Source: Minisyncoccota bacterium
GTDB taxonomy: Bacteria > Patescibacteriota > Minisyncoccia > Phycocordibacterales > UBA9973
Direction: 5' to 3'
Length of the DNA: 64,000 nucleotides
Assembly (NCBI GenBank): GCA_035714785.1
Contig: DASTLQ010000011.1
Span: 6,124-70,123, forward strand
Under the pieces are notes generated by a model. The model saw only the letters and a program-made list of their open reading frames with translations. It searched no databases and was not told where the DNA came from. The position numbers were made by a program, and so were the translations under genes. Of this stretch, positions 716-20,344 are shown one piece after another (position 1 is the first letter of the stretch; each line of letters begins with the position of its first letter).

Positions 716-740
716 GCTGGCATTATACCACACCCCAAAA

Positions 741-803
741 GTGTAAGGGGACCCCTTACATGTTATCCACAGTGTAAGGGGTCCCCTTGCATGTTATCCA
801 CAG
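741..803. repeat. palindromic repeat family A, two tandem 31-bp units (GTGTAAGGGGWCCCCTTRCATGTTATCCACA)
   Basis: Core palindrome GTAAGGGGACCCCTTAC followed by DnaA-box 9-mer TTATCCACA, twice. Divergent HIT/recJ intergenic region. Confidence 0.9.
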
Positions 804-822
804 GTTGGACGGGTATGGTAGA

Positions 823-2574: not shown

Positions 2575-2615
2575 TCGAGTAAAATATAAAATAAAAAGCC
2601 AGAATAAAAGCAAAA

Positions 2616-3128
2616 ATGAAAAACGAAAAAATCACAATTTATACAGATGGATCAGCACGAGGAAATCCCGGCAAGGCGGGGTGGGGAGTAGTTTTTATTA
2701 GTGGAGATAAGGTGTGGGAGATGGGAGGTAGAAGCGAACATGCTACCAACAATCAAATGGAGCTTACTGCTGCCATTGAGGCCCTTCGACATGTGAAAAA
2801 GAGCAGTGGGGCTAGGGGGGCCACCAGCAAAGAAACTACGGCAAGGAATGGCGCAGAAAACCCCACGGTAGAAATTTTTTCTGATTCTAAATATGTGATT
2901 TTAGGTGTGACCGAATGGATTCATGGATGGATAAAAAATGGATGGAGAAATGCAGCCAAGAAGCCTGTACTAAATCGCGAGCTTTGGGAAGAGTTGCACG
3001 AGCTAAATAAAGAAGTGAAACCAAAATGGTCGTACGTCGCCGGCCACGCCGACAGTGTTTACAACAACCGCGCAGACGAGATTGCTACGAGTTATGCGGA
3101 TAATCTACCAATGAAGCTAAAAACATGA
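2616..3128 (+). CDS. rnhA: ribonuclease HI
   Basis: DGSARGNPG..TNNQMELTAAIEAL..SDSKYV..GHADSVYNNRADEIA catalytic motifs. Carries a ~25 aa Gly/Ala/Thr-rich insertion (SSGARGATSKETTARNGAENPTVE). Confidence 0.85.
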   Translation: MKNEKITIYTDGSARGNPGKAGWGVVFISGDKVWEMGGRSEHATNNQMELTAAIEALRHVKKSSGARGATSKETTARNGAENPTVEIFSDSKYVILGVTEWIHGWIKNGWRNAAKKPVLNRELWEELHELNKEVKPKWSYVAGHADSVYNNRADEIATSYADNLPMKLKT

Positions 3129-3138
3129 TCATGAAAAA

Positions 3139-4659
3139 ATGAGGGACAAAATATTTTATAGTGTATGTTTCGGATTTCTTTTAGGAACGCTTATGCGTTC
3201 TTTTGTTTTTATGGAACCATATATTTTTTTCGTGCTCGCGTGTGGGCTTGCGCTTCTAGGTGTAAGGGGACCCCCTACACCTAGCTTGCATGCAAGGGGT
3301 CCCCTTACCCCCGCCACCTCCTTTGCCCTTCCCCGATTATCTGCCCGAGAGTTCCAGGCCTGTTTATCCGTTATATTTTTATGTTTTGGTTTGGGAGTTC
3401 TCCGGTTCCAATTTGCGGACAAAATGTTCCCGGCCGTTTTTGAAACTATGGCTGAGACAAAGATTGAGATCACTGGCACTATAATAGATGAACCAGACGT
3501 GCGGGAAAATAATCAGAAACTGACTGTCGAGATTTCTAAAGAAAATCAAAAGACTCGCATACTCGTGAATACAGGTTTAGAAAAATATTTTCACTACGGT
3601 GATGAGATTTTTTTGGCGGGCAAATTTGAGAAACCAAAAAATTTTCTTCCAAAAGAAGACGAGCCTGAAGCTCGAGAGTTTGATTATGTTTCGTATCTTC
3701 GAAAAGACGGAATCGGCTATATGATGAATTATCCAAAAATAGAAATTACAGGGAAGGGGAAAGGAAATCCAATCAGAGGATTTCTTTTTAGTACAAAAGA
3801 AAAATTTGTTCACAATATTGCTGTTACCGTGCGGAGCCCTGAGTCACTTCTGCTTGGTGGTCTAATTCTTGGGGAACGATCTTCTTTTGATAAGGAGATG
3901 CGACAAAAATTTATTGACACTGGTACCATCCATATCGTGGCACTTTCTGGATACAATGTCACAATTATTTCTGAGTGGATTATAAAAATATTTTCCTTTC
4001 TTCCACAGGCATTCGCGCTTAGTTTTGGAATCTTGGGAATTATTTTGTTTGTTACGATGACGGGCGGACACGCCACCGCTGTGCGAGCAGGAATCATGGC
4101 AGTACTCGCTCTCATCGCTCGGGCGACGGGGCGCAATTATGATGTAGCTAGAGGAATTGTTTTGGCAGCTGTGGTGATGGTTTTAATAAGCCCGCATGTG
4201 CTCGTCTATGATGTCTCCTTTCAGCTTTCATTCATCGCTACGATAGCTGTTATTTTTGTTTCACCAAAGATGGAAAAATATTTCTTGTGGATTCCTGCTA
4301 AATGGCTTCGCGATATCACGGCCACAACTTTTTCTGCATATATATTTGTACTACCTTTCGTTCTGTATAAAATGGGGAACCTTTCTTTGGTCGCCCTTCC
4401 TGCCAATGTTTTGGTACTGCCTACAATTCCCTTCACTATGGTGCTAGGTTTTATGACAGGGTTTGCAGAAATTTTCTCACCAATCCTCTCTGCTCCTTTT
4501 GCTTACGTTGCATATCTTTTGCTTCATTATCAACTCGGGGTGATAGATTTTTTTGCAAAGATTCCGTTCTCCGCATTTATGGTGCCGAGTTTTTCGTTTG
4601 TTTTTGTATTTCTTACTTACGCAATTTTCGCGTATCTATATTTTAGGAAACGTTCTTGA
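3139..4659 (+). CDS. comEC: ComEC/Rec2 competence channel protein, N-terminal DUF4131 + competence domain (no MBL domain)
   Basis: Multi-pass membrane protein with GTIHIVALSGYNVTII (compare ComEC HLLAISGLH). The N-terminal TM region contains an in-frame copy of the palindromic repeat (3259-3312, ..VRGPPTPSLHARGPLTP..). Confidence 0.7.
   Translation: MRDKIFYSVCFGFLLGTLMRSFVFMEPYIFFVLACGLALLGVRGPPTPSLHARGPLTPATSFALPRLSAREFQACLSVIFLCFGLGVLRFQFADKMFPAVFETMAETKIEITGTIIDEPDVRENNQKLTVEISKENQKTRILVNTGLEKYFHYGDEIFLAGKFEKPKNFLPKEDEPEAREFDYVSYLRKDGIGYMMNYPKIEITGKGKGNPIRGFLFSTKEKFVHNIAVTVRSPESLLLGGLILGERSSFDKEMRQKFIDTGTIHIVALSGYNVTIISEWIIKIFSFLPQAFALSFGILGIILFVTMTGGHATAVRAGIMAVLALIARATGRNYDVARGIVLAAVVMVLISPHVLVYDVSFQLSFIATIAVIFVSPKMEKYFLWIPAKWLRDITATTFSAYIFVLPFVLYKMGNLSLVALPANVLVLPTIPFTMVLGFMTGFAEIFSPILSAPFAYVAYLLLHYQLGVIDFFAKIPFSAFMVPSFSFVFVFLTYAIFAYLYFRKRS
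3259..3312. repeat. palindromic repeat family A copy inside comEC coding sequence (in frame)
   Basis: GGTGTAAGGGGACCCCCTACACCTAGCTTGCATGCAAGGGGTCCCCTTACCCCC; translated VRGPPTPSLHARGPLTP. Confidence 0.85.
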
Positions 4660-4681
4660 AATCACAGAAAAAACGCGAACC

Positions 4682-5275
4682 TTAGGAAACTTTCTTGAAA
4701 TTTTCTTCGATCGATCCCCAGTTTAGATTTTCAAAAAAAGCTTCCACGTATTTTTTCTTTTCGGAAGTAGGATAGTCGTAAACATATGCGTGCTCCCACA
4801 TATCGAGTCCCAAAATCCAATCCACTCCGTTTAGTTGCCCTATGTGTTGCTCGTCTATCCATACATGTACAAATTGTTTCAGTTGTCGATCCCAGCCGAG
4901 TACTGCCCATCCCACACCTCGGGTAGTAGCCAAAATTTTGAAGCTGGCTAGCCATCCATCAAACGAAGAAAATTGTTTTTCAATTTCGCTACGAAAAGCT
5001 GAGTCGGATGATAGAGGTTTCGCTCCTCCTTCGAGCGAGCGGAAATAGTATTCGTGGTTTCTCATACCGTTGTACTCAAATCCAAATCTTCTCTGTAGTT
5101 CTCCGATCACGTAAGTGTTAGCTTCTGGATCTACCATGTAGCCGGTAATTTTTTCCTGAATCAGGTTTGCGTGTTTCACATACCCAGCGTAGAGCTTTAA
5201 ATGCTCTTCAATGTTTTTGGCTGAAATCCCTGAAAGCTCACCAATTTTAAATTTTTGTTCTTCAAATTTTTGCAT
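4682..5275 (-). CDS. sodA: Fe/Mn superoxide dismutase
   Basis: Fe/Mn-SOD signature DMWEHAYY; 197 aa. Confidence 0.9.
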   Translation of the reverse strand: MQKFEEQKFKIGELSGISAKNIEEHLKLYAGYVKHANLIQEKITGYMVDPEANTYVIGELQRRFGFEYNGMRNHEYYFRSLEGGAKPLSSDSAFRSEIEKQFSSFDGWLASFKILATTRGVGWAVLGWDRQLKQFVHVWIDEQHIGQLNGVDWILGLDMWEHAYVYDYPTSEKKKYVEAFFENLNWGSIEENFKKVS

Positions 5276-5355
5276 ATAGTTTTTATCTAATATTTATAAT
5301 TTTATGTTTAAATTGTGACGCTTGGTCGCTTTAATAATTACACAAAAAGTATAAC

Positions 5356-6252
5356 ATGCCGAACCGTCGAAAAAACTCAAAGGTCCTATACGTCGTGTTT
5401 TTCCTGTTGCTCTTAAATGTGTTCTTATTTGTTCATGATAGGCGGGATTCAGATAGGGGGCTTGTGTTTGCTATGTTGGATGTTGGGCAAGGAGATGCAC
5501 TATATATAGAGTCACCGACTGGCACACAGGTGTTAGTAGATGGAGGACCTCTGCGGAAAATTCTTGGAAAGCTTTCCGAGGTGATGCCTTCGTATGATCG
5601 CAAGATAGATGCCCTCATCATGACTCATTCAGACTCGGATCATATTTCGGGTTTCAGTGAAGTCCTGTCGGCGTATGAGGTTGGACAAATGTTTGAACCG
5701 GGCGTGGCCACTGATTCTCTAATTTATGAAAATCTAAAAAAAGAATTAGAAGAAAAAAAGATTCCAAGCGTGATTGCACGAAAGGGAATGCGACTCCATC
5801 TCGGTGGTGGTGCCGTGATTGATATAATTTTTCCAGATAGAGATGTGTATGATTGGGAGACAAATATGGCCTCTCTAGTTTTGAAACTCACCTATGGAGA
5901 TGTTTCCTTCATGCTCACCGGAGATGCTTTGATCGAAACTGAAGAATTGATTTTAAAAGAAACGCCAGCAGAATTTTTAAAAAGCACATATCTAAAAGCT
6001 GGACATCATGGTTCAAAAACTTCCACTTCGCAGAAATTCGCTGAAGCAGTTTCTCCGGAGTACGCGTTAATTTCTGCGGGAAGGGAGAACAACTACGGCC
6101 ACCCGCATCCCGAGGTTTTAGAGATTTTAAAAAGTATAGGTGCACAGATTTTACGCACTGACCATTCTGGCACCCTGTGGATAAAGTGTAAGGGGACCCC
6201 TTACCCCAACATGCAAGGGGACCCCTTGCATGTTATCCACAGGTTCCTATGA
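5356..6252 (+). CDS. ComEC-type metallo-beta-lactamase domain protein (stand-alone MBL half of ComEC)
   Basis: N-terminal TM, then LDVGQGDALYIESPTGTQVLVDGG and HSDSDHISG (MBL HxHxDH). The C-terminal 20 aa (LWIKCKGTPYPNMQGDPLHVIHRFL) are encoded by the palindromic repeat 6185-6243. Confidence 0.75.
   Translation: MPNRRKNSKVLYVVFFLLLLNVFLFVHDRRDSDRGLVFAMLDVGQGDALYIESPTGTQVLVDGGPLRKILGKLSEVMPSYDRKIDALIMTHSDSDHISGFSEVLSAYEVGQMFEPGVATDSLIYENLKKELEEKKIPSVIARKGMRLHLGGGAVIDIIFPDRDVYDWETNMASLVLKLTYGDVSFMLTGDALIETEELILKETPAEFLKSTYLKAGHHGSKTSTSQKFAEAVSPEYALISAGRENNYGHPHPEVLEILKSIGAQILRTDHSGTLWIKCKGTPYPNMQGDPLHVIHRFL
6185..6243. repeat. palindromic repeat family A copy forming the 3' coding tail of the ComEC-MBL ORF
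   Basis: AGTGTAAGGGGACCCCTTACCCCAACATGCAAGGGGACCCCTTGCATGTTATCCACAGG. Confidence 0.85.
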
Positions 6253-6264
6253 TAGAATGAATCC

Positions 6265-7509
6265 ATGAAAGACAAAACACTAGAAAAGTTAATCAAGGGC
6301 GAAGCCAAAAGGCAGGCAGAAGGGCTTGAGCTAATCCCTTCCGAAAACTATGTTTCAGAGGACGTGCTCCTAGCAAACGGCTCTATTTTTACCAACAAAT
6401 ATTCCGAGGGCTACCCAGGTCGCCGATACTATGGAGGGCAAGAATTCACAGACCAAGTAGAAACTCTAGCTATTGAGCGTGTAAAGAAACTTTTCAAGTG
6501 TAAGTTTGCAAACGTTCAGCCCCACTCTGGAGCTCCTGCAAATCTTGCGGTTTACGCTGCACTTCTTTCGCCTGGGGACACCGTTCTTGGAATGGACCTT
6601 TCTCATGGTGGGCATCTTACTCATGGACACCCTATGACCCTGCCCGCAAAGATTTACAACTTCGTCACTTATAAAATGAAAAATCCTGAAACGGGGGAGA
6701 TAGACTACGAGGATCTTCGCAGAGTGGCGCTTGAGACTAGACCCAAAATTATTCTTGCTGGTTTTTCTGCATACCCTCGTACACTCAACTACAAAAAATT
6801 TGTGGAAATTGCCAAGGAGGTGGATGCAATCACAATGGCAGATATGGCTCACATCGCTGGACTGATTGCTGCAAAAGTTTTACGCAATCCATTTGACGAT
6901 GGTTTTGATATTATCACTTCCACTACTCACAAAACACTTCGCGGTCCGCGCGGAGGTATTATTCTAGTTAGAGAAAGTGAAGAGATTGCGAAAAAAATTG
7001 ATAAAGCGATCTTTCCAGGAATTCAAGGTGGTCCGCATATGCATATCATCGCTGCCAAGGCAGTAGCTTTTGGCGAAGCTATGAGTCCAAAGTTTAAACA
7101 GTATGCAAAACAAATTTTGAAAAATGCAAAAGCCATGGAGAAAGTTTTGAAAAAGAATAAAATCCGGATGATCGGGGGAGGGACTGACAACCATCTCATT
7201 CTAGCTGATGTTTTTGGATCACTCGGAGTGACAGGCAAGGAGGCGCAGACCGTGCTCGACGAAGTGGGCATCACTCTCAATATGAATTCGATTGCCGGTG
7301 ATACTCGAAAGCCATTGGATCCTTCGGGTATTCGTTTCGGTACTCCTGCTATTACTACTCGAGGATTTAAAGAAAAAGAATGTGCGAGAGTGGCAGAGCT
7401 TATGATTTCAGTTTTGAAAGACAAAGAAAATGTAAAATTAAAAAAAGCAGTGAAAGCTGAAATTCAAAAAATGGCAAAAAAATTCCCCGTGCCTAAGAGA
7501 TTTGTGTAG
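6265..7509 (+). CDS. glyA: serine hydroxymethyltransferase
   Basis: LELIPSENYVS..YSEGYPGRRYYGG..HLTHG..TTHKTLRGPRGG; 414 aa full-length SHMT. Confidence 0.95.
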   Translation: MKDKTLEKLIKGEAKRQAEGLELIPSENYVSEDVLLANGSIFTNKYSEGYPGRRYYGGQEFTDQVETLAIERVKKLFKCKFANVQPHSGAPANLAVYAALLSPGDTVLGMDLSHGGHLTHGHPMTLPAKIYNFVTYKMKNPETGEIDYEDLRRVALETRPKIILAGFSAYPRTLNYKKFVEIAKEVDAITMADMAHIAGLIAAKVLRNPFDDGFDIITSTTHKTLRGPRGGIILVRESEEIAKKIDKAIFPGIQGGPHMHIIAAKAVAFGEAMSPKFKQYAKQILKNAKAMEKVLKKNKIRMIGGGTDNHLILADVFGSLGVTGKEAQTVLDEVGITLNMNSIAGDTRKPLDPSGIRFGTPAITTRGFKEKECARVAELMISVLKDKENVKLKKAVKAEIQKMAKKFPVPKRFV

Positions 7510-7527
7510 AGAATAATTAAATAAAGA

Positions 7528-8001
7528 ATGTCACACATTCATGAAAAAATAGATTGGACAGTAGAAGTTTTTATTGTTCACAAAAATAGAGTACTTCTTC
7601 GCAAGCATGATAAATACAATATCTGGCTTTCAGTTGGTGGGCACATTGAGCTAGATGAGGATCCAGTCGAAGCAGCCAAGAGGGAAGTGAAAGAAGAAGT
7701 GGGACTAGATGTACAACTCATCGGAAGAGATAAAGGTAAAGGCGATGGAAGCGTAGCAGATCACGGATACTTGGATTTATTGCCACCAAAATACCTCGGA
7801 AGACATCCGATAAATGATAATCACGAACATATTACCTTGGTGTATTTTGCAACAACGGAAACCAGCGAAGCTAGCGACCCAAGTGATATTGAAGATGCGG
7901 AAATATTTTGGGCCACAAAGGAAGACCTTGAAAAGATGGACTTATCTCCAAATGTAAAATGGTATGCCCAGAAAGCTCTAGAAGAATTAAGCACCACATA
8001 G
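7528..8001 (+). CDS. NUDIX hydrolase
   Basis: Nudix box GGHIELDEDPVEAAKREVKEEVGL. Confidence 0.7.
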   Translation: MSHIHEKIDWTVEVFIVHKNRVLLRKHDKYNIWLSVGGHIELDEDPVEAAKREVKEEVGLDVQLIGRDKGKGDGSVADHGYLDLLPPKYLGRHPINDNHEHITLVYFATTETSEASDPSDIEDAEIFWATKEDLEKMDLSPNVKWYAQKALEELSTT

Positions 8002-8033
8002 AAAGTTAACCGTTTTTCTGGTATATTTCTCAT

Positions 8034-8732
8034 ATGGCAAAATTAAATAAACAGGGAAAACTGATCGTAATAGATGGTACGGACGGAAGCGGAAAAGCGA
8101 CTCAGGTAAAGCTATTAGAAAAAAGACTAAAGAAAGAAAAGAGAAAAGTGAAGGTGGTGGATTTCCCTGAATATTATGGAAATTTTTTTGGAGCCTTTAT
8201 TGGGCACTGTCTCTCGGAGCAATACTATAATTGGACAAACATTCATCCCAAGATCGCTTCCATCGCATACGCGGCTGACCGCTGGGAATCTTCGGCACAA
8301 ATTAAAAAATGGCTTGCCGAGGGATACATCGTGCTAGCCAATCGATATGTCAGTGCCAATCAAATCCACCAAGGTGGGAAAATAAAAAATGCATCCAAGC
8401 GTGCGTCTTATTTAAAATGGCTCGAAGAAATGGAGTACGGTGTTTTTAAAATCCCTCGACCCGATCGAGTGGTTTACCTAAATGTTCCAATGAAAGTAAT
8501 TTTAAGATTGATAAAAGAAAGGAATAAAAAAACTGCTCGCGCTTATACGGGAAAGAAAAAGGATATAGTTGAAGGAAATGTGGAATATCTGTCTAACTCC
8601 ACCAAAGCCGCGGAGTGGCTTTCACGAAGAGAAAAGGGTTGGATTAAAATAGATTGCGTAAAAGAGGGGATATTACGCACCCCAGAACTTATCCATGAGG
8701 AGATATATGGGAAGATAAAAATAATTCTATGA
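8034..8732 (+). CDS. tmk: thymidylate kinase
   Basis: P-loop IVIDGTDGSGKATQ typical of dTMP kinase; 232 aa. Confidence 0.8.
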   Translation: MAKLNKQGKLIVIDGTDGSGKATQVKLLEKRLKKEKRKVKVVDFPEYYGNFFGAFIGHCLSEQYYNWTNIHPKIASIAYAADRWESSAQIKKWLAEGYIVLANRYVSANQIHQGGKIKNASKRASYLKWLEEMEYGVFKIPRPDRVVYLNVPMKVILRLIKERNKKTARAYTGKKKDIVEGNVEYLSNSTKAAEWLSRREKGWIKIDCVKEGILRTPELIHEEIYGKIKIIL

Positions 8733-9226
8733 AAATTCCGATAGTAAACAAAAGTGACGAAATAGTGAGATATAAGGAACGCTATGAAACAACGACTGAT
8801 GATATCAGAAGAATTATTATATTACATGTATTTAATGAAAATGATGAAGTACTTCTGGCAAAAAGATGTTCGCAAAAGATAATTGATCCTGACAAATGGG
8901 GACCATCTGTGGCTGGAACAGTAGAAGAGGGTTATGATTATGATTCGACTGTGATAAAAGAAGCAGAAGAAGAAATTGGTTTAAAAAATATAAAACCAAT
9001 TTTTATTACGAAATTATTTTACGAAGTTTCGAATGCAAAGAGATTTGCTGCTGTTTATTATTACCACATAAATTCAAAAGAAAATGAGATTGTCTTGCAA
9101 GAGGAAGAAGTAGCAGAAGTAAAATGGATTGGATTTGAAGAATTAGATAAATGGTTTACAGCAAAACCAGAAGAATTCGTTCCTTCCTTTTCTCGGGCGA
9201 TAGAAACTATAAAAATTGCAATATGA
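8729..9226 (+). CDS. NUDIX hydrolase
   Basis: Nudix-like GTVEEGYDYDSTVIKEAEEEIGL; 4-bp overlap with tmk. Confidence 0.6.
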   Translation: MKIPIVNKSDEIVRYKERYETTTDDIRRIIILHVFNENDEVLLAKRCSQKIIDPDKWGPSVAGTVEEGYDYDSTVIKEAEEEIGLKNIKPIFITKLFYEVSNAKRFAAVYYYHINSKENEIVLQEEEVAEVKWIGFEELDKWFTAKPEEFVPSFSRAIETIKIAI

Positions 9227-9648
9227 TTCTAAAAGTTAAAAAATTAAGAGATGATGCGCGATTGCCGACCCATGGACATATGGGAGACGCGGGTATGGAT
9301 TTCTATGCGATAGAAGAAGTGAGGTTTGCTCCGAGGGAGATGGCGCGCATCCCCACAGGCGTGGCTGTTGAAATTCCCGAAGGACATGTCGGACTGATAT
9401 GGGACAAATCTGGGGTAGCTTTTAATCTTGGATTAAAGATAATGGGCGGAGTGGTGGATTCTGGGTATCGGGGAGAGATCATAATGTGCCTCCTTAATAC
9501 TACCGACAAAGAGGTTATAATAGAGAAAGGACGAAAGGTGGCTCAGATGATAGTGCAAAAATTTGAGCATTGCGAGATTCTAGAGGTGGACGAAGTCTCT
9601 GAAAGTATACGCGGGGAAGGTAGAGAAGGAAGCACGGGACATATGTAA
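9223..9648 (+). CDS. dut: dUTP diphosphatase
   Basis: MILKVKKL..ARLPT.GH.GDAGMDFYA..GVVDSGYRGEI dUTPase motifs. The ORF track start at 9151 is probably an upstream extension; ATG at 9223 chosen. Confidence 0.85.
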   Translation: MILKVKKLRDDARLPTHGHMGDAGMDFYAIEEVRFAPREMARIPTGVAVEIPEGHVGLIWDKSGVAFNLGLKIMGGVVDSGYRGEIIMCLLNTTDKEVIIEKGRKVAQMIVQKFEHCEILEVDEVSESIRGEGREGSTGHM

Positions 9649-9652
9649 AAAA

Positions 9653-11371
9653 ATGAAAGAAGAAATAAAAAAAATAATAAACGAAGCACTGCGAGAGCTT
9701 AAAATAGAAGAGACGGATTTTGCCGTGGAGCATCCAGCTGATTTAAAAAACGGGGACTACTCTGTAAACGTAGCAATGGTTTTAGCAAAACAGCTTGGCT
9801 CCAATCCTCGCGAACTTGCCGAACAGATCGCCCAAAGTGTAAGGGGTCAACATGTAAGGGGACCCCTTACCCCTGAACATGCAAGGGGTCCCCTTACACG
9901 TTATCCACAGGTTGAAAAGGTGGAGGTGGCTGGGGCGGGGTTTTTGAATTTCTATCTTTCGAGAAAATTTTTTGCGGATTCCATAGCGGAGATATTGGAA
10001 AAGAATGATAATTTTGGAAAAAACGAAGAAGGTAAAGGGAAAAAAGTAATAATAGAATATTCTTCCCCAAACATTGCAAAGCCTTTCACTATAGGACATT
10101 TGCGTTCTACTATTATTGGTCACGCCTTGGCTAATATTTTTGAATATAACGGATATGAAGTGCTTCGAGACAATCACCTCGGGGATTGGGGGACACAATT
10201 TGGAAAGCTGATCGTAGCCATCAAGCGATATGGTAATGAAGAAGAAATAGGAAAAGCCGAAAGACCAGTAAAAGCGCTCACAGAACTATATGTAAAATTT
10301 CATGCCGAGGCTGAGAAAGATAAAACATTAGAAGACGAAGCGAGAGCATGGTTTACAAAGCTTGAACAAGGAGATAAAGAAGCTAGAGCCATCTGGCAAA
10401 AGTGTGTAGATTGGTCAATGACAGAATTTTCAAAAATATATGAAAGATTAGGTGCTTCTTTTGATATGACTTTGGGAGAAAGTTTTTTTGAAGACAAAAT
10501 GAAAACAGTGATAGAGGATTTGGAGAAGACTGATTTTTATAAAGAATCAGAAGGAGCAAAACTTGTTTTCTTTCCTGACGAAAAACATCCTCCACTCATG
10601 ATACAAAAAAAAGATGGCAGTACTTTGTATGGGACTCGTGACCTTGCTACCGATAAATATAGGAGGGATACTTGGAACCCAGACTTAGTAGTAAACGAAG
10701 TAGGAATGGAGCAGTCATTATATTTCAAACAGCTTTTTGAAGTAGAAGAAATGCTTGGATATTTTAAAAAAGAACAAAGAGTCCACGTAGCTCATGGTCT
10801 GTATAAATTTAAAGAAGGAAAAATGAGTACCAGAAAAGGAAATGTAATCTGGCTTGAAGACGTGCTTGATGAAGCAAAAAAAAGAGCAGGCAAAATTAAT
10901 GAAGAGACAGCGGAAGTGGTAGGCATAGGGGCGATAAAATTTAATGACCTTCGAAGTGAAAGTCGAAAAGATATTATATTCAACTGGGGGGACATTTTGA
11001 ATTTGGATGGAGACTCTGGTCCTTATGTACAGTATTCGTACGTCCGCACAAAGGCGATAGAAAATAAGGCAAAAGAATTGGGAATAGAAAAAAGCATCGC
11101 TCAGCCAACCGAGGAGATATTTGAGATTGAGAAACTGCTGTATCGTTTTCCGGAAGTGGTATCTCGTGCACGGGAAACTTACGCTCCGCATGTCATCGCT
11201 CAATATCTTTTAGAAGTGGCACACGAATTCAGTTCGTTTTATGGAAATACTCAAGTATTGAAAGAGGAAGATCCTTTCTCTCCGTATAAGCTTGCCGTGG
11301 TCGAAGCGACAGGTATCGTAATCAAAAAAGGCCTTTGGATCCTCGGCATCCAGACCCCCGAAAAAATGTAA
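9653..11371 (+). CDS. argS: arginine--tRNA ligase, with an in-frame palindromic-repeat insertion
   Basis: Arg_tRNA_synt_N (..EKVEVAGAGFLNFYL), class I core (SSPNIAKPFTIGHLRST) and DALR anticodon-binding domain. Bases 9836-9911 are a copy of the GTAAGGGGWCCCCTTAC/TTATCCACA repeat read in frame as RGQHVRGPLTPEHARGPLTRYPQ. Confidence 0.9.
   Translation: MKEEIKKIINEALRELKIEETDFAVEHPADLKNGDYSVNVAMVLAKQLGSNPRELAEQIAQSVRGQHVRGPLTPEHARGPLTRYPQVEKVEVAGAGFLNFYLSRKFFADSIAEILEKNDNFGKNEEGKGKKVIIEYSSPNIAKPFTIGHLRSTIIGHALANIFEYNGYEVLRDNHLGDWGTQFGKLIVAIKRYGNEEEIGKAERPVKALTELYVKFHAEAEKDKTLEDEARAWFTKLEQGDKEARAIWQKCVDWSMTEFSKIYERLGASFDMTLGESFFEDKMKTVIEDLEKTDFYKESEGAKLVFFPDEKHPPLMIQKKDGSTLYGTRDLATDKYRRDTWNPDLVVNEVGMEQSLYFKQLFEVEEMLGYFKKEQRVHVAHGLYKFKEGKMSTRKGNVIWLEDVLDEAKKRAGKINEETAEVVGIGAIKFNDLRSESRKDIIFNWGDILNLDGDSGPYVQYSYVRTKAIENKAKELGIEKSIAQPTEEIFEIEKLLYRFPEVVSRARETYAPHVIAQYLLEVAHEFSSFYGNTQVLKEEDPFSPYKLAVVEATGIVIKKGLWILGIQTPEKM
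9836..9911. repeat. palindromic repeat family A copy inserted in frame in argS
   Basis: AGTGTAAGGGGTCAACATGTAAGGGGACCCCTTACCCCTGAACATGCAAGGGGTCCCCTTACACGTTATCCACAGG. Confidence 0.85.
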
Positions 11372-11374
11372 CGT

Positions 11375-11498
11375 GCAAAGTGCAAGGGGGCTGTGGATAA
11401 CATGTAAGGGGACCCCTTACACTTTATCCACACATACCACCCTTACCTGTGGATAACATGCAAGGGGACCCCTTACCCCTTATCCCGGCGCCCCTTAC
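11375..11498. repeat. cluster of family A repeat units with four DnaA-box 9-mers (argS-ileS intergenic)
   Basis: ..GTGCAAGGGGGCTGTGGATAACATGTAAGGGGACCCCTTACACTTTATCCACACATACCACCCTTACCTGTGGATAACATGCAAGGGGACCCCTTACCCCTTATCCCGGCGCCCCTTAC.. Confidence 0.9.
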
Positions 11499-11524
11499 GT
11501 GCGGATTTATGCTATTATTTTTGA

Positions 11525-14500
11525 ATGGCCGACGAAAACAAAGAAAACAAAGAAAATACGACTTCGAAATCCGAAAGCGCTCTGCGAGAAGAGGGCATTT
11601 TAAAATTTTGGGAAGAAAATCATACTTTTCAAAAAACCCTACAACGACCCTCCCCTAAAGGCGAATTCATTTTTTACGAAGGTCCTCCTACAGCAAACGG
11701 AAAGCCCGGCATCCATCACCTCGAAGCTCGCGCTTTCAAAGATGTTATCCCTCGATACAAAACCATGTCCGGCTACCATGTGCGCCGAAAGGGGGGCTGG
11801 GATACTCACGGCTTGCCAGTGGAATTACAGGTGGAAAAAAAGCTAGGACTTGATTCCAAGAAGGCGATCGAAGAGTATGGTATCGCAAAATTTAACGAAG
11901 AATGTAAAGAAAGTGTTTGGGAGTATGTGGATCTTTGGGAAAAATTTACCAGCAGGACAGGATATTGGCTGGACCAGAAAGATGCGTATGCTACTTATGA
12001 CAACACATATATTGAATCAGTTTGGAATATTTTAAAACATGTAGACGAGCAAAAACTTCTATACAAAGATTACAAAGTGGTGCCATGGTGTCCACGTTGT
12101 GGAACGGTGCTATCTTCGCACGAACTTGCTCAAGGATATGAAGATGTAAAAGATCTTTCCGTGTATGCAAAATTTCGACTCGCCGATGGTAGCCTCGCCG
12201 ATGCTGGCCTCGCCGATAACGACCTAGCGAATAAAGACACATACATTCTTGCATGGACCACTACTCCATGGACATTGCCCGGCAACGTCGCGCTAGCAGT
12301 AGGGGAGGATATTGATTATGTAAAAGCAAAAGTTGGCGAAGAAGTGCTAATCCTAGCCAAAGAAAGAATTTCTATTTTACCCGAAGGGTATGAAATTTTG
12401 GAAGAAATAAAAGGAGCCAAGCTCGTGGGCCTCGAATATGAACCCCTGTATCCATTCCTAGCAGAAACTATTTCCGAAACCGAAAAGCCAAAATTAGAAA
12501 AAGCATACAAGATATACAGCGCAGACTTCGTGACTACTACAGACGGTACTGGAGTGGTTCATACAGCAGTGATGTATGGACAGGACGACTTTGCGCTCGG
12601 CACTAAAATCGGACTTCCAAAACACCACCTCGTAGGCTTGGATGGAAAATTTCTACCAGGCACAGGAAACTTCGAAGGAAGATTTGTGCGTGATGAAGAT
12701 GTGGCCGTAGATGTGATCAAAGATCTTGCTTCCCGCAATCTTTTATTTAAAAAAGAAAAATACGAACACTCATATCCGCATTGCTGGCGCTGTCACACTG
12801 CACTCATCTACTACGCTCGTGATTCATGGTATATAAAAATGTCTGATCCAAGGATCAAAGACAAAATGATCTCGGAAAACAAGAGCATTAACTGGGAGCC
12901 AGCCCATATTCGCGATGGAAGGTTTGGGGAATGGCTAAGAGAAATAAAAGATTGGGCAATTTCTCGAGAGCGATATTGGGGTACTCCTTTGCCAGTATGG
13001 GAATGTAATAAATGTCACAAGCGCGAAGTGATCGGTAGCCTCGAAGAGCTTCGAGGTAAGGCAAAAAAATCTGGCAACAAATATTGTGTGATGCGTCACG
13101 GGGAGACTGACAAGAATATCACTAATACTATATGTACTACTGTAAATAGCGGATCCCAACTTACAGAAAATGGAAAAAAGAGCACCCTCGCTACGGCCGA
13201 AAATCTTAAAAAAGAAAATATAAATATTATTATTACTTCTGAATTCCATCGCACTCGAGCAACGGCGGAAATAGTAGCTCCCTTGCTGGGAATTCCACAA
13301 TCAGACATAGTCGTAGATCCTCGACTGGGAGAAATAAAAGTACCAAGCTATGAGGGAAAAAGCTGGACCGAATATCACAAAGATTATCCTCATACGGTAG
13401 AAAATTTTACTAAAGCTCCAGAGGGAAATGAATCATACGAAGACGTGAGAGCTCGCTTGGCAGATTTCCTTTGTGATATTGAAAGTAAATATCAAAATAA
13501 AAATATTCTTATCATCACTCATGGTGCTCCTTCATGGCTCATGACTGCTGTTTCGCGATTGCTTGATGTAGACGAGACACTTAAACTTGTTCAAAGTTCA
13601 AAAGATTATCATTACTTGGCAAATTCTGAAGCGCAGGTGCTTCCTTTCTCTCCTTTTCCTCATGACGGTAAAGGAAATCTAGATCTGCATCGCCCATACA
13701 TCGACAATATGATCGTAGAGTGTGAATGTGGTGGTACTTCGGAGAGAGTGAAAGAGGTGGTGGACGTTTGGTTTGACTCCGGCGCTATGCCGTTTGCCCA
13801 AGATCATTATCCTTTCAAAAATAAAAAATGGGTAGATGGTCCCGGATATCCTGCGGACTATATTTCTGAAGCTATCGATCAGACTCGTGGTTGGTTTTAT
13901 ACCTTGCATGCTATCGGAGTACTTCTCGGAAAGGGAAAGGCATATAAAAATGTAATTTGTTTGGGGCACCTGCTGGATTCCGCTGGTAAAAAAATGTCCA
14001 AATCTCTCGGCAACATAGTGGATCCGTGGATTATGATAGAAAAATACGGAGTAGACACTTTGCGCCTGTGGATGTATTCAGTAAATCAACCTGGAGAATC
14101 AAAGAATTTCGATGAAAAAACAGTCACCTTGGTGCATCGTCAGTTTTTCGGTCTACTGTACAATGTGCTTTCTTTCTATGAACTCTATCGTGAAAAAGAT
14201 TTGGAAAAAAATGAAGAACCAAAACCGCAAAACGTGCTCGATATTTGGATAATAGTGAGATTGCACGAACTGGTGGAGCTTTGTACAAAAGGTCTAAATG
14301 AATTTAAACTAATTGAACCAGTCCGAGCGATTCGTGATTTTATTGATGACCTATCCACCTGGTACTTGCGACGTTCGCGAGAGAGAATTAAAGAAGGGGA
14401 CAAAGAAGCAAAAGCTACTCTGTATTATGTTTTGCGCACTCTTTCCCAATTGCTCGCTCCCTTTGCTCCATTTTCCGCCGAAGACATCTGGCAAAAATTG

Positions 14501-15076
14501 CGCCGAGAAGGAGATGAAGGAAGCGTACATCTTTCCACTTGGCCAAAAGTAAAAATTTCCATTTTGCGATCATTTACTAAGCGCGATACATATGTAATTG
14601 AACACATGATAAAAACTCGCGAGATAGTGACTCTTGGCTTGGAAGCAAGACAGCGAAGAGGAATAAAAGTACGTCAGCCTCTGGGAATGATTCGGGTCAA
14701 AGATTTTGGCTTGCCAGAAGAATATGCAGAGGTAGTGAGAGACGAGCTAAATGTAAAAGAAATTCGCAGAGACCCTGGCATCAAAGAAGAAGTGCACCTC
14801 GAAACAGAAATCACCCCGGAGCTTCGCCAAGAAGGTGACTATCGCGAAGTGGTCCGTGCGATACAAGATTTGCGAAAGAAAATCGGACTTATGCCAAACG
14901 ACCTCGTCACTCTCACTATCTCCCTATCAGACCCCTTGAAATCCGTCATCGAAAAATACGAGCGTGAACTTTCTAAAGTAGTAGGAGCGACCGAAATAAA
15001 ATACGAAGAAAATGATGGCGAGGAATCTAAGATTGGAGACGAAACTGTCAAAATAAAAATCCAGAAAAGATCCTAA
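11525..15076 (+). CDS. ileS: isoleucine--tRNA ligase with an inserted histidine-phosphatase (PGM-like) domain
   Basis: GPPTANGKPGIHH (HIGH region), CP1 editing region, KMSKSLGN; 1183 aa. Between WECNKCHKREVIGSLEEL and LDLHRPYIDNMIVECECGG sit ~200 aa carrying VMRHGETDKN and ITHGAP, the signature of the histidine phosphatase superfamily branch 1. Confidence 0.9.
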   Translation: MADENKENKENTTSKSESALREEGILKFWEENHTFQKTLQRPSPKGEFIFYEGPPTANGKPGIHHLEARAFKDVIPRYKTMSGYHVRRKGGWDTHGLPVELQVEKKLGLDSKKAIEEYGIAKFNEECKESVWEYVDLWEKFTSRTGYWLDQKDAYATYDNTYIESVWNILKHVDEQKLLYKDYKVVPWCPRCGTVLSSHELAQGYEDVKDLSVYAKFRLADGSLADAGLADNDLANKDTYILAWTTTPWTLPGNVALAVGEDIDYVKAKVGEEVLILAKERISILPEGYEILEEIKGAKLVGLEYEPLYPFLAETISETEKPKLEKAYKIYSADFVTTTDGTGVVHTAVMYGQDDFALGTKIGLPKHHLVGLDGKFLPGTGNFEGRFVRDEDVAVDVIKDLASRNLLFKKEKYEHSYPHCWRCHTALIYYARDSWYIKMSDPRIKDKMISENKSINWEPAHIRDGRFGEWLREIKDWAISRERYWGTPLPVWECNKCHKREVIGSLEELRGKAKKSGNKYCVMRHGETDKNITNTICTTVNSGSQLTENGKKSTLATAENLKKENINIIITSEFHRTRATAEIVAPLLGIPQSDIVVDPRLGEIKVPSYEGKSWTEYHKDYPHTVENFTKAPEGNESYEDVRARLADFLCDIESKYQNKNILIITHGAPSWLMTAVSRLLDVDETLKLVQSSKDYHYLANSEAQVLPFSPFPHDGKGNLDLHRPYIDNMIVECECGGTSERVKEVVDVWFDSGAMPFAQDHYPFKNKKWVDGPGYPADYISEAIDQTRGWFYTLHAIGVLLGKGKAYKNVICLGHLLDSAGKKMSKSLGNIVDPWIMIEKYGVDTLRLWMYSVNQPGESKNFDEKTVTLVHRQFFGLLYNVLSFYELYREKDLEKNEEPKPQNVLDIWIIVRLHELVELCTKGLNEFKLIEPVRAIRDFIDDLSTWYLRRSRERIKEGDKEAKATLYYVLRTLSQLLAPFAPFSAEDIWQKLRREGDEGSVHLSTWPKVKISILRSFTKRDTYVIEHMIKTREIVTLGLEARQRRGIKVRQPLGMIRVKDFGLPEEYAEVVRDELNVKEIRRDPGIKEEVHLETEITPELRQEGDYREVVRAIQDLRKKIGLMPNDLVTLTISLSDPLKSVIEKYERELSKVVGATEIKYEENDGEESKIGDETVKIKIQKRS

Positions 15077-15657
15077 TGCACCACATATATCACACCGAAG
15101 GGTTGATACTCTCAAGTAGAAATTTTGGAGAGGCTGGAAAATACTACCGCATTTTTACTCGCGACCTCGGAATGATAAATGCTTCGGCCCAAGGTGTTCG
15201 CAAGATGTCTTCCAAGCTCCGCTTTATTCTGCAAGATTTTTCTTATGTAAAAGTAGACTTAGTCAAAGGCAAAGACTTTTGGCGTCTTACTAGCGCCTCC
15301 AAAACCAATCAGCTAGAAAAATTAGCCAAAGACCCTCAAAAATTTGCCATTTTCGCCAATATTTCGCGTCTTTTGAAAAGACTTTTGGCAGGAGAGGAGC
15401 CAAATAGTGATCTTTTTGATGATCTTAAAAATGGATTAAAGATCTTGGAGACTTTTTCTGACTCAAAAGATCTTAAAAATATTGAAGCTTTGCTAGTATT
15501 GCGGATTTTGGGCCGACTTGGATATATCGGAGACGCCGACGCACTCCTCGGCTGGGTGCAATCCCCTTTTGGGGAAGACTTAGTCAGGGAGGCTGACAAA
15601 AAGAGAAGTATAATTCTAAGGGAGATAAACAAGGCTTTGAAAGAAACTCAGCTCTAG
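15076..15657 (+). CDS. recO: DNA repair protein RecO
   Basis: N-terminal OB-fold segment TEGLILSSRNFGEAGKYYRIFTRDLGMINASAQGVRK resembles RecO; 193 aa (short form). Confidence 0.65.
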   Translation: MHHIYHTEGLILSSRNFGEAGKYYRIFTRDLGMINASAQGVRKMSSKLRFILQDFSYVKVDLVKGKDFWRLTSASKTNQLEKLAKDPQKFAIFANISRLLKRLLAGEEPNSDLFDDLKNGLKILETFSDSKDLKNIEALLVLRILGRLGYIGDADALLGWVQSPFGEDLVREADKKRSIILREINKALKETQL

Positions 15658-15718
15658 TTTCGTCATCTCTAGGGTTATCGTTGTAGAGGCCCTCCTTTAC
15701 TGCTATAATAAACCAGAT

Positions 15719-17638
15719 ATGCCGCATGACCCTGATAAATTAAACAGAATAGAGGAATTAAAAACAAAACTTTCCAGTAAAGGGTATGAAGTAAAGGCGA
15801 AAGCTCGAAACGTTTTTTCCGCTACTCCTCAAAAAACTGTACCGGATTCTTGGGAAAACGATACCCCAAGCAACGATTTCACTGAAAAATTTCTTATGAA
15901 AACCTCAGTATTCAAAAGATTTTTTATTTTTTCCATAGCATTCTTCCTTTTGGCTGCAGGTTTTGCTGCTTATACTTTTTTTGGTAAAGGAAATACTATC
16001 TCAAATGAAAATATTGAGATTTCAATTTTAGGAAATGCCTTTACTGCAGGAGGAGAAGAGCTTCCTTTACAGATTGAGATAATAAATCGTAATACTTCTC
16101 CACTTGAGCTTGCCGATTTGATCATAGAGTATCCTCGAAATGCTTCTTTTGATTTCACACGCGATACGGAAAGGCTTCGAGTTTCTCTAGGCACTGTTCC
16201 CTCGGGCGGAGTACGAAATGAAAATGTGAAAGTGGTACTTTTTGGAGAGCAGGGAAGCATCAAACCAATCCGAGTATCGCTTGAGTATCGTGTTGAAGGC
16301 TCGAATGCTATTTTCGTAAAGGAAAAGAGTTTTGAAGTTTCTATTAGTTCTACTCCGATCAATCTTTTCGTAGAAGGTCCGACTGCATTGAGTCCAAATC
16401 AGGATATTACCTTGGATATAAAAGCGATTTTAAATGCCACTCGAGCTGCTCAGCGAATGCTTATCAAAGTGGATTACCCTGTAGGTTTTCAGTTTGCCTC
16501 AGCTACTCCCGCTCCGACCATAGGAAACAATATGTGGAGCTTGGGGGATCTTTCTCCTGGAGCAGAAAGAAAGATTTCTATTTCTGGGAAAATGGTTGAA
16601 GTTTCCGATGGTGAAGAAAAAACTTTTCGTATATATAGCGGATCAGAATCTACTAGAGACAAGACCGAGATCGGCACCATTTTTAATTCTCTAGGACATA
16701 CTGTAGCTATTCAAAAGCCATTCATTGAAGCCTCGCTTTCTATAAATGGTGCATACCAGCGTGAATACGCAGTAGATTCTAAGACCAAGATCCACGGAAG
16801 CATCGTATGGTCAAACAATTTAAATACTTCCATCAATGATGTGGTAATAAAAGCAAAAATTTCTGGGAATGCAGTAAATCGAAGCACCATTGAAACTCAA
16901 GGTTTCTATAATTCTTCCGAGGATACTATTACTTGGGATAAAAATTCTATCAGCGAGCTCGGTCAGGTAGGGCCTGGCCGTACTGGTACAGTTGCTTTTA
17001 CTTTTGAATCTATCCCACTTACATCTCCAGGGGGAGGCATGCTTCCTGAGCCAAGCGCAAGAATTGATGTTTCCATTGCTGGTCGTCAGCCAATCACTGA
17101 CAATGCCGAGGATTTGAAAAACACGGAATCAAAAATAATAAGAATTATCTCGGATGTAAATTTTGCCGCCAAGGCTTTGTATTATAGTGGTGCTTTCACT
17201 AACACGGGTCCTATTCCTCCAAAGGCTGAACAAAAGACGACCTACACTGTAGTCTGGTCTGTGACAAATACTGCTAACAATATTTCAAATGCACAGATTC
17301 GTTCTACTCTGCCACAATGGGTGCGATTCGTCGGACCAATTTCTCCTCCAGCCGAAAATCTAAATTTCAATCCTTCTACTAAAGAAATCATCTGGGAAAT
17401 CGGAAATATGCCAAGGGGACTAGGAGTCACTGGCGCCGCGAGGGAAGTGAGCTTCCAAGTAGAGCTCCTAGCTTCGCTATCCCAAGTAGGCACTACGCCA
17501 GTTTTGGTAAACGATATGGTTTTGACCGGAAGAGACGATTTTGCTAAGGTTGATGTACGGGTAAACAAAGGATCTATTAATACCCGATTACAAAATGATC
17601 CTAGCTTCCCTGTTACGGGGGATAGAGTGGTAGAATAG
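15719..17638 (+). CDS. hypothetical membrane-anchored protein with large beta-rich extracytoplasmic domain
   Basis: One TM helix (~aa 70-90), then ~550 aa Ser/Thr/Asn/Val-rich sequence with no recognisable motif. Confidence 0.5.
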   Translation: MPHDPDKLNRIEELKTKLSSKGYEVKAKARNVFSATPQKTVPDSWENDTPSNDFTEKFLMKTSVFKRFFIFSIAFFLLAAGFAAYTFFGKGNTISNENIEISILGNAFTAGGEELPLQIEIINRNTSPLELADLIIEYPRNASFDFTRDTERLRVSLGTVPSGGVRNENVKVVLFGEQGSIKPIRVSLEYRVEGSNAIFVKEKSFEVSISSTPINLFVEGPTALSPNQDITLDIKAILNATRAAQRMLIKVDYPVGFQFASATPAPTIGNNMWSLGDLSPGAERKISISGKMVEVSDGEEKTFRIYSGSESTRDKTEIGTIFNSLGHTVAIQKPFIEASLSINGAYQREYAVDSKTKIHGSIVWSNNLNTSINDVVIKAKISGNAVNRSTIETQGFYNSSEDTITWDKNSISELGQVGPGRTGTVAFTFESIPLTSPGGGMLPEPSARIDVSIAGRQPITDNAEDLKNTESKIIRIISDVNFAAKALYYSGAFTNTGPIPPKAEQKTTYTVVWSVTNTANNISNAQIRSTLPQWVRFVGPISPPAENLNFNPSTKEIIWEIGNMPRGLGVTGAAREVSFQVELLASLSQVGTTPVLVNDMVLTGRDDFAKVDVRVNKGSINTRLQNDPSFPVTGDRVVE

Positions 17639-17643
17639 TCTAC

Positions 17644-18972
17644 ATGAGCAAAGAAGAAAAAAATGATTTAATGGAAAAGATCGTGTCGCTATGTAAGCGT
17701 CGCGGTTTTGTGTTTCAAGGGTCCGAAGTTTACGGAGGGTTGGCGGGTACTTGGGATTACGGACACTTTGGGGTAGCTTTGCGAAATAATATAAAAAATT
17801 ATTGGTGGAAAAGATTTGTGGATGGCCGGAGAGATATGTATGGAGTAGATGCAGCCATCTTGATGCGCGAAGAGGTTTGGCAAAATGCTGGACACGTAGA
17901 AAATTTTACTGATCCACTAGTAGAGTGTGAAAAATGTAAGCGCCGTTTTCGTGCAGACCAGCTCGAAGAGAAAGATTGTTGCTTGGACTGCGAGGGCAAG
18001 CTTGGCGAAGCGCGTCAATTTAACATGATGTTTGAGACAAAAGTGGGTGCATCGGAAGATTCGGCTGCTGTCTCGTACCTTCGTCCAGAAACTGCTCAAG
18101 GAATGTTTGTAAATTTTAAAAATACCGTGGACGCTTTTCATCCAAAGTTGCCATTTGGAATGGCTCAGATAGGAAAGGCTTTTAGAAATGAAATCACTCC
18201 GCGCGATTTTCTTTTTCGTCAGAGAGAATTTGAGCAGATGGAAATAGAATACTTTGTACGTCCCGAAGATTGGGAAAAATATTTTGAATATTGGAAAGAT
18301 GAGATGCTCGAATGGATGGAAGAAGTGGGAATAGATATGAATAAAGTGCATGAGCTTGAAGTGCCCGACGAAGACCGAGCGCACTACTCCAAGCGCACCG
18401 TAGACTTTGAGTTTGAATATCCTTTTGGGAAAAAAGAACTTTTTGGATTGGCATATCGCACCGATTTTGATCTTACTAATCACAAACTCGAATATGTAGA
18501 TGAAGATTCTTCGGCTGGCGTAGGTGGAAAAAGCGCAGGTGGTAAAATGGTGCCCCATGTGATTGAGCCGACTTTCGGATTAGACCGAGCGATGCTTGCC
18601 CTTGTGCTTTCTGCCTATACTGAAGAAGAAAAAGGAGGGGAAACTCGCGCCTTTTTGAAATTTAAACCTCATATCGCGCCTGTCATTTGCGCCGTGTCTC
18701 CGCTTTTGAAAAATAAGCCAGAGCTCGTAGAGTATGCTAATGCAAAAGTTTTCGCACCTTTGAAGGCTAAGTTTGGACGAGTGGCATGGGACGACAACGG
18801 CAACATCGGAAAGCGATATCGCCGACAGGATGAAATCGGTACTCCATGGTGCATCGTGGTTGATTTTGATACTCTCTCGGATGACACCGTCACAGTCCGA
18901 GATCGCGATACAGGTGAGCAGGAAAGAGTAAAAGTAAGCGACCTTTCTTCTTATATAGAAGAAAAAATCTAA
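17644..18972 (+). CDS. glyQS: glycine--tRNA ligase (alpha2 dimeric type)
   Basis: RRGFVFQGSEVYGGLAGTWDYG.. and class II motifs. Contains a Cys4 knuckle (CEKCKRRF..CCLDCEGK). Confidence 0.9.
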   Translation: MSKEEKNDLMEKIVSLCKRRGFVFQGSEVYGGLAGTWDYGHFGVALRNNIKNYWWKRFVDGRRDMYGVDAAILMREEVWQNAGHVENFTDPLVECEKCKRRFRADQLEEKDCCLDCEGKLGEARQFNMMFETKVGASEDSAAVSYLRPETAQGMFVNFKNTVDAFHPKLPFGMAQIGKAFRNEITPRDFLFRQREFEQMEIEYFVRPEDWEKYFEYWKDEMLEWMEEVGIDMNKVHELEVPDEDRAHYSKRTVDFEFEYPFGKKELFGLAYRTDFDLTNHKLEYVDEDSSAGVGGKSAGGKMVPHVIEPTFGLDRAMLALVLSAYTEEEKGGETRAFLKFKPHIAPVICAVSPLLKNKPELVEYANAKVFAPLKAKFGRVAWDDNGNIGKRYRRQDEIGTPWCIVVDFDTLSDDTVTVRDRDTGEQERVKVSDLSSYIEEKI

Positions 18973-18974
18973 TT

Positions 18975-20340: not shown

Positions 20341-20344
20341 AAAT

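Follow-up and report, generated by a model that had tools for sequence, protein, structure and literature searches.

The window analysed here is a 64-kb stretch of contig DASTLQ010000011.1, from a metagenome-assembled genome (MAG; 42% GC) of Candidatus Paceibacterota; the source records of its ArgRS and ComEC proteins (P0001 and P0121; ArgRS accession HEU0085705.1) carry the same assignment. On the plus strand lies argS (9653-11371), encoding an arginine--tRNA ligase (ArgRS) of 572 amino acids with the PF03485, PF00750 and PF05746 domains. The gene is intact outside a single segment, Q61-V87, where its open reading frame (ORF) passes in frame through a copy of a dispersed palindromic repeat (9833-9913, plus strand). 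Two other copies are found inside ORFs, both also on the plus strand: one at 3255-3312, within the gene for the membrane part of ComEC (DUF4131 and Competence domain; 3139-4659), and one at 6172-6245, at the end of the gene for a metallo-beta-lactamase (MBL)-fold protein (5356-6252), which is the C-terminal module of ComEC encoded as a gene of its own.

A modular family of palindromic repeats

We searched the window for the 13-nt palindrome AAGGGGWCCCCTT, allowing at most one mismatch, and used dinucleotide-preserving shuffles of the window as the null expectation. There are 28 such cores in 15 loci, while the shuffled sequences contain 0.06 on average and one at most. The basic module of the family is a 17-nt hairpin core, GYAAGGGGWCCCCTTRC, which is frequently lengthened to a 29-nt palindrome, CTAGGTGTAAGGGGWCCCCTTACACCTAG. 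Cores combine with 13-nt inverted arms, AACCTGTGGATAA on the left and TTATCCACAGGTT on the right, and the family is modular: modules of 17-29 nt are assembled into composites of 47-122 nt, 12 of the 15 loci hold two or three cores, and many copies have a single arm or none. Terminal inverted repeats of the form AACCTGTGGATAA...TTATCCACAGGTT are seen at 6172-6245, 57926-57976, and 11388-11432. Complete units, for example the first two of these, are near-perfect long palindromes, with predicted RNA folding energies of -41 to -46 kcal/mol (z -5.8 to -7.8).

Twelve of the 15 loci are intergenic, although ~90% of the window is coding according to our own gene calls. These copies often leave only 1-10 nt of spacer between themselves and the adjoining genes, whose arrangement may be tandem, convergent, or divergent, a variety that disfavors a strand-specific role such as termination. 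A function as terminators was rejected on further grounds: None of the copies within positions 1-20000 is called terminator-like, there are no T-runs, and copies are present between divergent genes. No Rfam family matches the repeats at the gathering threshold.

The copy in argS

A preliminary description of this DNA held that the argS ORF reads straight through a repeat of 76 bp (9836-9911) with neither a stop nor a frameshift. The sequence is as described: The translation across 9836-9911 runs ...AQSVRGQHVRGPLTPEHARGPLTRYPQVEKVEV... / ...AEQIAQSVRGQHVRGPLTPEHARGPLTRYPQVEKVEVAGAGFLNFY... without interruption, and the repeat family to which the segment belongs is real. Its extent needs correction. 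With the bounds set from other copies, which begin with AAAGTGTAAGGGG and end with TTATCCACAGGTT, the repeat-derived stretch measures 81 nt, or 27 codons (9833-9913); its parts are half of one core, two cores in full length (at 9854-9870 and 9881-9897), and the right arm. The predicted RNA hairpin has an energy of -38.3 kcal/mol (z -3.7).

We compared the protein with 119 retrieved ArgRS homologues that are 54-73% identical to it (120 sequences with the window protein). The segment is absent from all 119, including the syntenic orthologues at 71-73% identity, and from ArgRS sequences in the PDB (6ao8 and 4zaj), whose alignment opens a gap of 18 residues precisely at RGQHVRGPLTPEHARGPLTRYPQ. 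The helix-plus-loop segment that runs from LAEQI to the VEKVEV strand is 16 residues long in 76 of the 120 sequences; at 32 residues, that of the window protein is the longest of all. The loop has gained a net 16 residues relative to the closest orthologues and 18 relative to solved ArgRS. The two closest orthologues (P0002 and P0003) sit in loci (L001 and L004; 34-35% GC) that share the gene order HIT - recJ - rnh - comEC - sod - MBL - glyA ... argS - ileS and contain zero copies of the core or the arms. Matched codon by codon, the orthologue loop E-I-N-K-N-K-I-P-E corresponds to S-V-R-G-...-R-Y-P-Q in the window. On this comparison, about seven native codons of the loop were replaced, for a net gain of 16 codons.

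Outside the insert, every column that is invariant in 76 aligned homologues is retained, including A93, G96, F97, and N99 directly after it. An AlphaFold2 model built with the homologue alignment has a mean predicted local distance difference test (pLDDT) score of 93.1 and a predicted template modeling (pTM) score of 0.92, and it resembles the ArgRS structures 6ao8 and 1f7u with a template modeling (TM) score of 0.88. In the model the insert forms a loop between the helix at residues 52-64 and the strand at residues 87-93. This loop is the least confident part of the protein (10-residue block means of the pLDDT: residues 61-70, 75; residues 71-80, 58), and it lies between confident flanks. The proposal that the insert maps to a surface loop of the N-terminal add-on domain is therefore borne out at the level of the model, in which the enzyme otherwise stays a confidently predicted ArgRS fold. 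Going by ArgRS-tRNA complexes, the strand and GxGF(I/L)N motif that follow the insert are part of the add-on domain contacting the tRNA D-loop.

The copies in ComEC and the MBL-fold protein

The copy in ComEC (about L39-P58) consists of a 29-nt palindrome, CTAGGTGTAAGGGGACCCCCTACACCTAG, and a second core, and it reads VRGPPTPSLHARGPLTP. It lies in frame, as previously reported, and extends over about 3255-3312; the corresponding 20-column block is missing from 119 of 119 ComEC homologues, so it is unique among 120 sequences. The copy is not a clean loop insertion. The block interrupts transmembrane helix 2 (TM2), where homologues read LYFALFLGL and then ISVFLFIFFNLIS; the GC-rich stretch that comes after the repeat, PATSFALPRLSAR (3306-3348, plus strand), replaces the hydrophobic second half of TM2, and the 12 residues following the block (PATSFALPRLSA) are nonhomologous and no longer hydrophobic. 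The nearest ComEC orthologues (L001 3597-4937 and L004 4455-5792) are without ~70 residues spanning TM2 and TM3 in the DUF4131 region, a region that is kept by the window protein and by more distant homologues. Since the nearest orthologues do without these helices, the TM2-TM3 region of ComEC appears to be under relaxed constraint in this lineage. The wording "essential genes" used earlier for the two hosts has to be narrowed as well, since comEC is not essential in the usual sense.

The copy in the MBL-fold protein is a complete two-hairpin element with both arms and a predicted RNA fold of -46 kcal/mol (z -7.8). That a repeat supplies the tail of this ORF was correctly recognized, but its contribution is ~24 codons (about codons 274-297) and not 20. 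The repeat-derived tail reads LWIKCKGTPYPNMQGDPLHVIHRF, with the stop codon 5 nt further on (6250-6252); it differs from that of the orthologues in L001 and L004, which end ...IVFSCDTIEKCKIKK.

Origin of the recurrent peptide

The same peptide, RGPLTP, appears in these unrelated proteins. In the 29-nt unit, one frame is closed by TAG and TAA and another by TAG, and, the unit being a palindrome, the opposite strand has the same stops. The sole open frame of the unit encodes L-G-V-R-G-P-L-T-P, with V/A variants, and the V/A-RGPLT motif is consequently produced in either orientation, as had been pointed out in the preliminary description. Over the 15 loci, a mean of ~1.4 of the six frames are open in each element, and three loci have no open frame at all. 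On the strand of its gene, every intragenic copy leaves a single frame open, which is the frame in use. The peptide thus recurs because the stop codons of the repeat leave a single frame open; its recurrence is a consequence of stop-codon placement and is not evidence for a selected motif.

How the argS segment arose

The argS segment is, very probably, one of the copies left as a short palindromic repeat, GC-rich and modular and of the repetitive extragenic palindromic (REP) or miniature inverted-repeat transposable element (MITE) type, multiplied in this Paceibacterota genome. Copies would have spread by transposition, with purifying selection as the filter; most of the survivors lie in tiny intergenic spacers. 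A genic copy would survive only if the added length preserved the reading frame, if the frame of the gene coincided with the one TAG/TAA-free frame of the unit (L-G-V/A-R-G-P-L-T-P), and if the site tolerated an additional flexible Pro/Gly loop. In ArgRS, the affected loop joins the last helix of the N-terminal add-on domain to its GxGF(I/L)N strand; the copy would have taken the place of ~7 loop codons and made the loop 16 residues longer. In ComEC, the copy would have entered the TM2-TM3 region that the closest relatives have deleted entirely; and in the MBL-fold protein, it would have rewritten the C-terminal tail, with a new stop codon close by.

Several observations weigh against this account. 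Neither of the insertions in argS and ComEC is clean: Native codons were lost in the former and half a transmembrane helix in the latter. No transposase or REP-associated tyrosine transposase (RAYT) is present among the 36 window proteins scanned with Pfam, a scan confined to 64 kb. No direct target-site duplication is recognizable around the copies, and the flanks of complete copies (ACC...GGT) are inverted and prolong the arms. Mobility we infer from copy number only, and translation of the argS insert is likewise presumed. The databases searched hold no relative closer than 71%-73% ArgRS identity, and hence no true empty-site allele at the DNA level. Finally, a hairpin of -38 kcal/mol within an essential mRNA might be costly.

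Could the enlarged loop, next to the strand that binds the tRNA D-loop, have been co-opted for a function such as contact with the tRNA or a partner, and be positively selected rather than tolerated? About a quarter of the 120 Paceibacteria homologues have an expanded loop, at least eight of them with a different GC-rich hairpin element there, in both orientations, and the insert abuts the invariant A93/G96/F97/N99 motif. The expansions are, however, conserved in neither sequence nor length across lineages; model confidence is lower in the insert than anywhere else in the protein; and unrelated proteins share its peptide for the plain reason that the repeat has no other open frame. The pattern suits a permissive site better than a selected one, and we consider co-option unlikely.

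A second alternative is that argS is split or truncated, the 60 N-terminal residues not being translated with the rest and the enzyme starting after the repeat, without its add-on domain. GTG codons and a GGAGG-like string do follow directly on the insert (GAAAAGGTGGAGGTG), and the N-terminal domain is missing from some ArgRS-like proteins (3fnr, TMq 0.64). The GGAGG string, however, is the conserved coding sequence for VEKVEV and is present in all orthologues, and the model shows the strand at residues 87-93 as part of the N-terminal domain, paired with elements further upstream. Residues 1-60 also keep ~57% identity to P0002, the closest orthologue; they contain no stops and share the frame of the remainder of the gene. 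A downstream start, the objection foreseen in the preliminary description, is thereby made unlikely, and we consider a split or truncated argS very improbable.

Least probable of all is an assembly artifact, in which a wrong path at a repeat-induced branch of the graph placed the repeat in argS and ComEC: The sequence is carried by one MAG from one sample, short dispersed repeats do break assemblies, and the contig of an independent Logan assembly that we located via the ComEC product (SRR10492801_496312) itself ends within repeat cores on both sides (window 779 and 6205), but that contig equals window 779-6205 with 0 mismatches and crosses the ComEC copy, the identical ArgRS protein is on record from both the NCBI TPA MAG and the Logan assembly, ordinary reads exceed the length of the element (47-81 nt), and each intragenic copy has parts of one and the same gene on either side, colinear with orthologues and in frame, and a chimeric join would not lead back into that gene.

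Comparison with known palindromic elements

The Rickettsia palindromic elements (RPEs) reportedly comprise RPE-1 to RPE-10, described by Ogata et al. in 2000 and 2002, and the Wolbachia palindromic elements are said to be related to them. The parallel with RPEs in a new lineage, drawn when the argS copy was first noticed, holds: Both are palindromic repeats dispersed in many copies through a reduced genome that is small and AT-rich, and in both cases the in-frame copies leave housekeeping genes intact, aminoacyl-tRNA synthetases included, and are absent from orthologues outside the lineage. The claim of novelty does not extend to palindromes in synthetases as such, since RPE-7 lies in frame in the Rickettsia PheRS-beta and IleRS (PMC3767692). 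More generally, in-frame fusions of MITEs are not unusual according to a 2024 review, which treats RPEs as the extreme case and places RPE-derived peptides at fold-compatible sites (PMC10969869).

There are also clear differences. RPE insertions are ~70-150 bp long and encode 23-50 residues (PMC3767692, Table 1), compared with modules of 17-29 nt and composites of 47-122 nt here. The element described here is strongly GC-rich, with GGGG/CCCC runs, and encodes a Pro/Gly loop; its host belongs to the Paceibacterota, in the candidate phyla radiation (CPR), and not to Rickettsia or the Rickettsiales. For three RPE families, close to half of the elements are located in ORFs, whereas 12 of 15 copies in the window are intergenic. 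RPE insertions are conserved across Rickettsia species, whereas the argS insertion is absent from the nearest known relatives. Set apart by length, composition, and host, the element is not an RPE.

Much of its anatomy is shared with REPs and bacterial interspersed mosaic elements (BIMEs), which are imperfect palindromes of 20-40 nt, present in high copy number and in direct or inverted clusters, in intergenic spacers near gene ends (PMC3733652). In the two REP superfamilies, the palindrome starts at its 5' end with a defining GTAG or CGTC tetranucleotide (PMC3733652); that tag is absent here, the cores beginning with GTAA or GCAA (GTAAGGGG or GCAAGGGG). A RAYT is likewise lacking among the scanned proteins of the 64 kb, and REPs are extragenic by definition, whereas three copies here are intragenic. 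With MITEs such as Correia, ERIC, Nezha, and QMITE, the element has in common that it is short and nonautonomous, with terminal inverted repeats, strong secondary structure, and occasional in-frame fusions to ORFs (PMC10969869). It differs from them in that neither a target-site duplication nor a parent insertion sequence (IS) was identified, there being no transposase among the scanned window proteins, and in that its copies are mosaics of modules, not one fixed unit, and shorter than most MITEs. Short GC-rich hairpins spread through an AT-rich genome and tolerated in frame in a protein-coding gene are also a feature of yeast mitochondria, whose AT-rich genomes contain mobile GC-rich palindromic clusters, in frame in var1; these differ in sequence from the present element and are organellar.

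Full-text literature searches returned no report of MITE- or REP-type repeats in the CPR and none of this core sequence. What is new is the lineage and the small, GC-rich, modular element; RPE-type behavior itself was already known. Our understanding of ArgRS or of mobile elements is not fundamentally changed. The findings suggest that the RPE type of protein change, in which selfish palindromes survive in frame in essential genes, operates in the CPR too, and they identify a concrete permissive loop in ArgRS. They would also explain odd Pro/Gly-rich segments in CPR proteins and carry a warning for annotation, since such segments may be repeat-derived and not lineage-specific functional motifs.

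Elements beyond the window

Eight ArgRS homologues with an expanded loop have as extra residues either TPSASGTSPLAGGE or SPPAKGEVGGG. At the DNA level these are one and the same GC-rich hairpin element, with core CCTCCCCCTTMGCAGGGGG, read in opposite orientations (L006 10189-10236 and L007 10200-10238), and it forms the strongest GC island of each of these 21-kb loci (34% GC). The ArgRS proteins of the two loci are 86.7% identical and carry the element at the same loop; the opposite orientations could reflect an inversion in situ or two independent insertions. The add-on-domain loop of ArgRS looks like a hotspot, struck by at least two unrelated families, the RGPLTP element and the CCTCCCCCTTMGCAGGGGG element.

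The CCTCCCCCTTMGCAGGGGG element is widespread, being found at 120 or more loci in a metagenome scan, on contigs of 33%-78% GC. In low-GC contigs, it is read through in the ORFs for LigA (in the adenylation domain, on two contigs; L141 8870-10951 and L176 2839-4995), RecG (L163 201-2414), and PurH (L201 7950-9728). The LigA proteins with the element have a second Pro/Gly-rich segment, PPNPPLSKGRAKGG, ~50 residues upstream.

A scan of genome contigs with the 17-nt core gave, among the matches listed, mostly single chance occurrences in unrelated genomes. Also among those listed are paired cores, GCAAGGGGWCCCCTTGC, 3-20 nt apart and read in frame in other MAGs. These pairs of AAGGGGWCCCCTT cores are located in the linker of a RecJ from a Patescibacteria MAG (L049 2325-2362), in a heavy-metal P-type ATPase from a Gottesmanbacteria MAG (L076 5817-5855), and, in gammaproteobacterial MAGs, in a GT4 glycosyltransferase (L075 4348-4383) and in the linker of a class I W/Y (TrpRS/TyrRS-type) synthetase fused to a tRNA-binding domain (L061 6039-6082). 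The TGTGGATAA arm is absent from all four loci. The paired cores are either homologous to the window family or convergent; if they are homologous, the element would be a mobile palindrome that crosses phyla and keeps adding loops to essential proteins. That small GC-rich hairpin repeats colonize housekeeping proteins in frame generally and repeatedly, in CPR as in other reduced genomes, is a tentative generalization, which we find plausible but do not favor.

Three further searches bear on the distribution of the family. A 27-nt pattern of arm plus core had 0 matches in the JGI metagenomes, indicating that the organism and its close relatives are not in that set, and a protein search with the concatenated repeat-encoded peptide gave no match at E <= 10. 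A viral scan for paired cores gave no evidence of a phage vector, returning only an unrelated 23-nt tandem coding repeat in one group of phage contigs of 53% GC.

Intergenic copies and other features of the window

The first of the intergenic copies is found between the divergent HIT and recJ genes (736-807). Here the right arm (TCCACA) forms the -35-like hexamer of a promoter-like site at 794-824 (TCCACA-16 nt-TAGAAT, with TG), just 5' of the recJ start at 832. Another copy occupies the spacer between argS and ileS (11388-11489). The metG gene (20345-21778) is bracketed by two 66-nt composite copies that are inverted and 86% complementary, one on its 5' side (20258-20341) and one on its 3' side (21771-21846), whose flank contains the metG stop codon TAG. 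Such provision of the TAG or TAA stop codon by a repeat flank is seen for the genes ending at 21778, 35980, 38848, 40314, and 59033 and for a minus-strand gene at 59060. In the copy at 35976-36043, the stop codon of the upstream gene falls within the CTAGATGTAAGGGG flank, and in that at 38840-39006, the TAA of the gene at 36077-38848 falls within GTGTAAGGGG. The copy at 59029-59063, a single palindrome of the 29-nt type between convergent genes, provides TAG stops for both strands. The remaining copies are located at 41775-41863, at 51975-52072 between convergent genes, at 57906-57976, and at 58609-58647 between divergent genes.

A second palindromic family, AAGGGTCCACCTTCGCC-NNN-GGCGAAGGCGGACCCTT, is present at 38860-38898, 38969-39006, and 40332-40389, fused to cores of the first. 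Two of its copies accompany the three cores at 38840-39006, and one accompanies the single core at 40304-40389, in the flank of which the gene at 39937-40314 terminates. The family brackets a block of 1.4 kb with ndk (39082-39665), a noncoding spacer of 270 nt, and a small membrane ORF (39937-40314). We rejected the idea that the inverted repeats at 38860 and 40332 delimit a small IS, since the interior consists of ndk and the small membrane ORF and holds no transposase.

The window contains 22 perfect 9-mers of the DnaA-box consensus (TTATCCACA / TGTGGATAA), where ~0.7 would be expected from base composition. All of them lie in repeat arms, for example at 763, 794, 6176, 6233, 9901, 11392, 11424, 57932, and 57964, and the repeat thereby scatters consensus DnaA boxes across at least 58 kb. 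If DnaA binds to these boxes, it may serve the element as a host factor or be titrated by it. A replication origin was set aside as an explanation, given 22 boxes spread over 58 kb and always within repeat arms.

The neighbor of argS, ileS (11525-15076), encodes an IleRS of 1183 amino acids in which a complete histidine-phosphatase domain (His_Phos_1, PGAM-like; residues 521-676) is contained within the class I catalytic domain. The same architecture is found in two other Paceibacteria (L006 14146-17709 and L007 14496-17975). At 12179-12219, ileS also has an in-frame tandem repeat with a period of 15 nt (CTCGCCGATGGTAGC / CTCGCCGATGCTGGC / CTCGCCGATAA...), which is translated as LADGSLADAGLADNDLA in IleRS. 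Two features on the minus strand complete the window: a tmRNA gene at 47760-48183, and a SAM riboswitch (57727-57850) located 5' of metK (56723-57661), with the repeat copy at 57906-57976 just upstream of the riboswitch.

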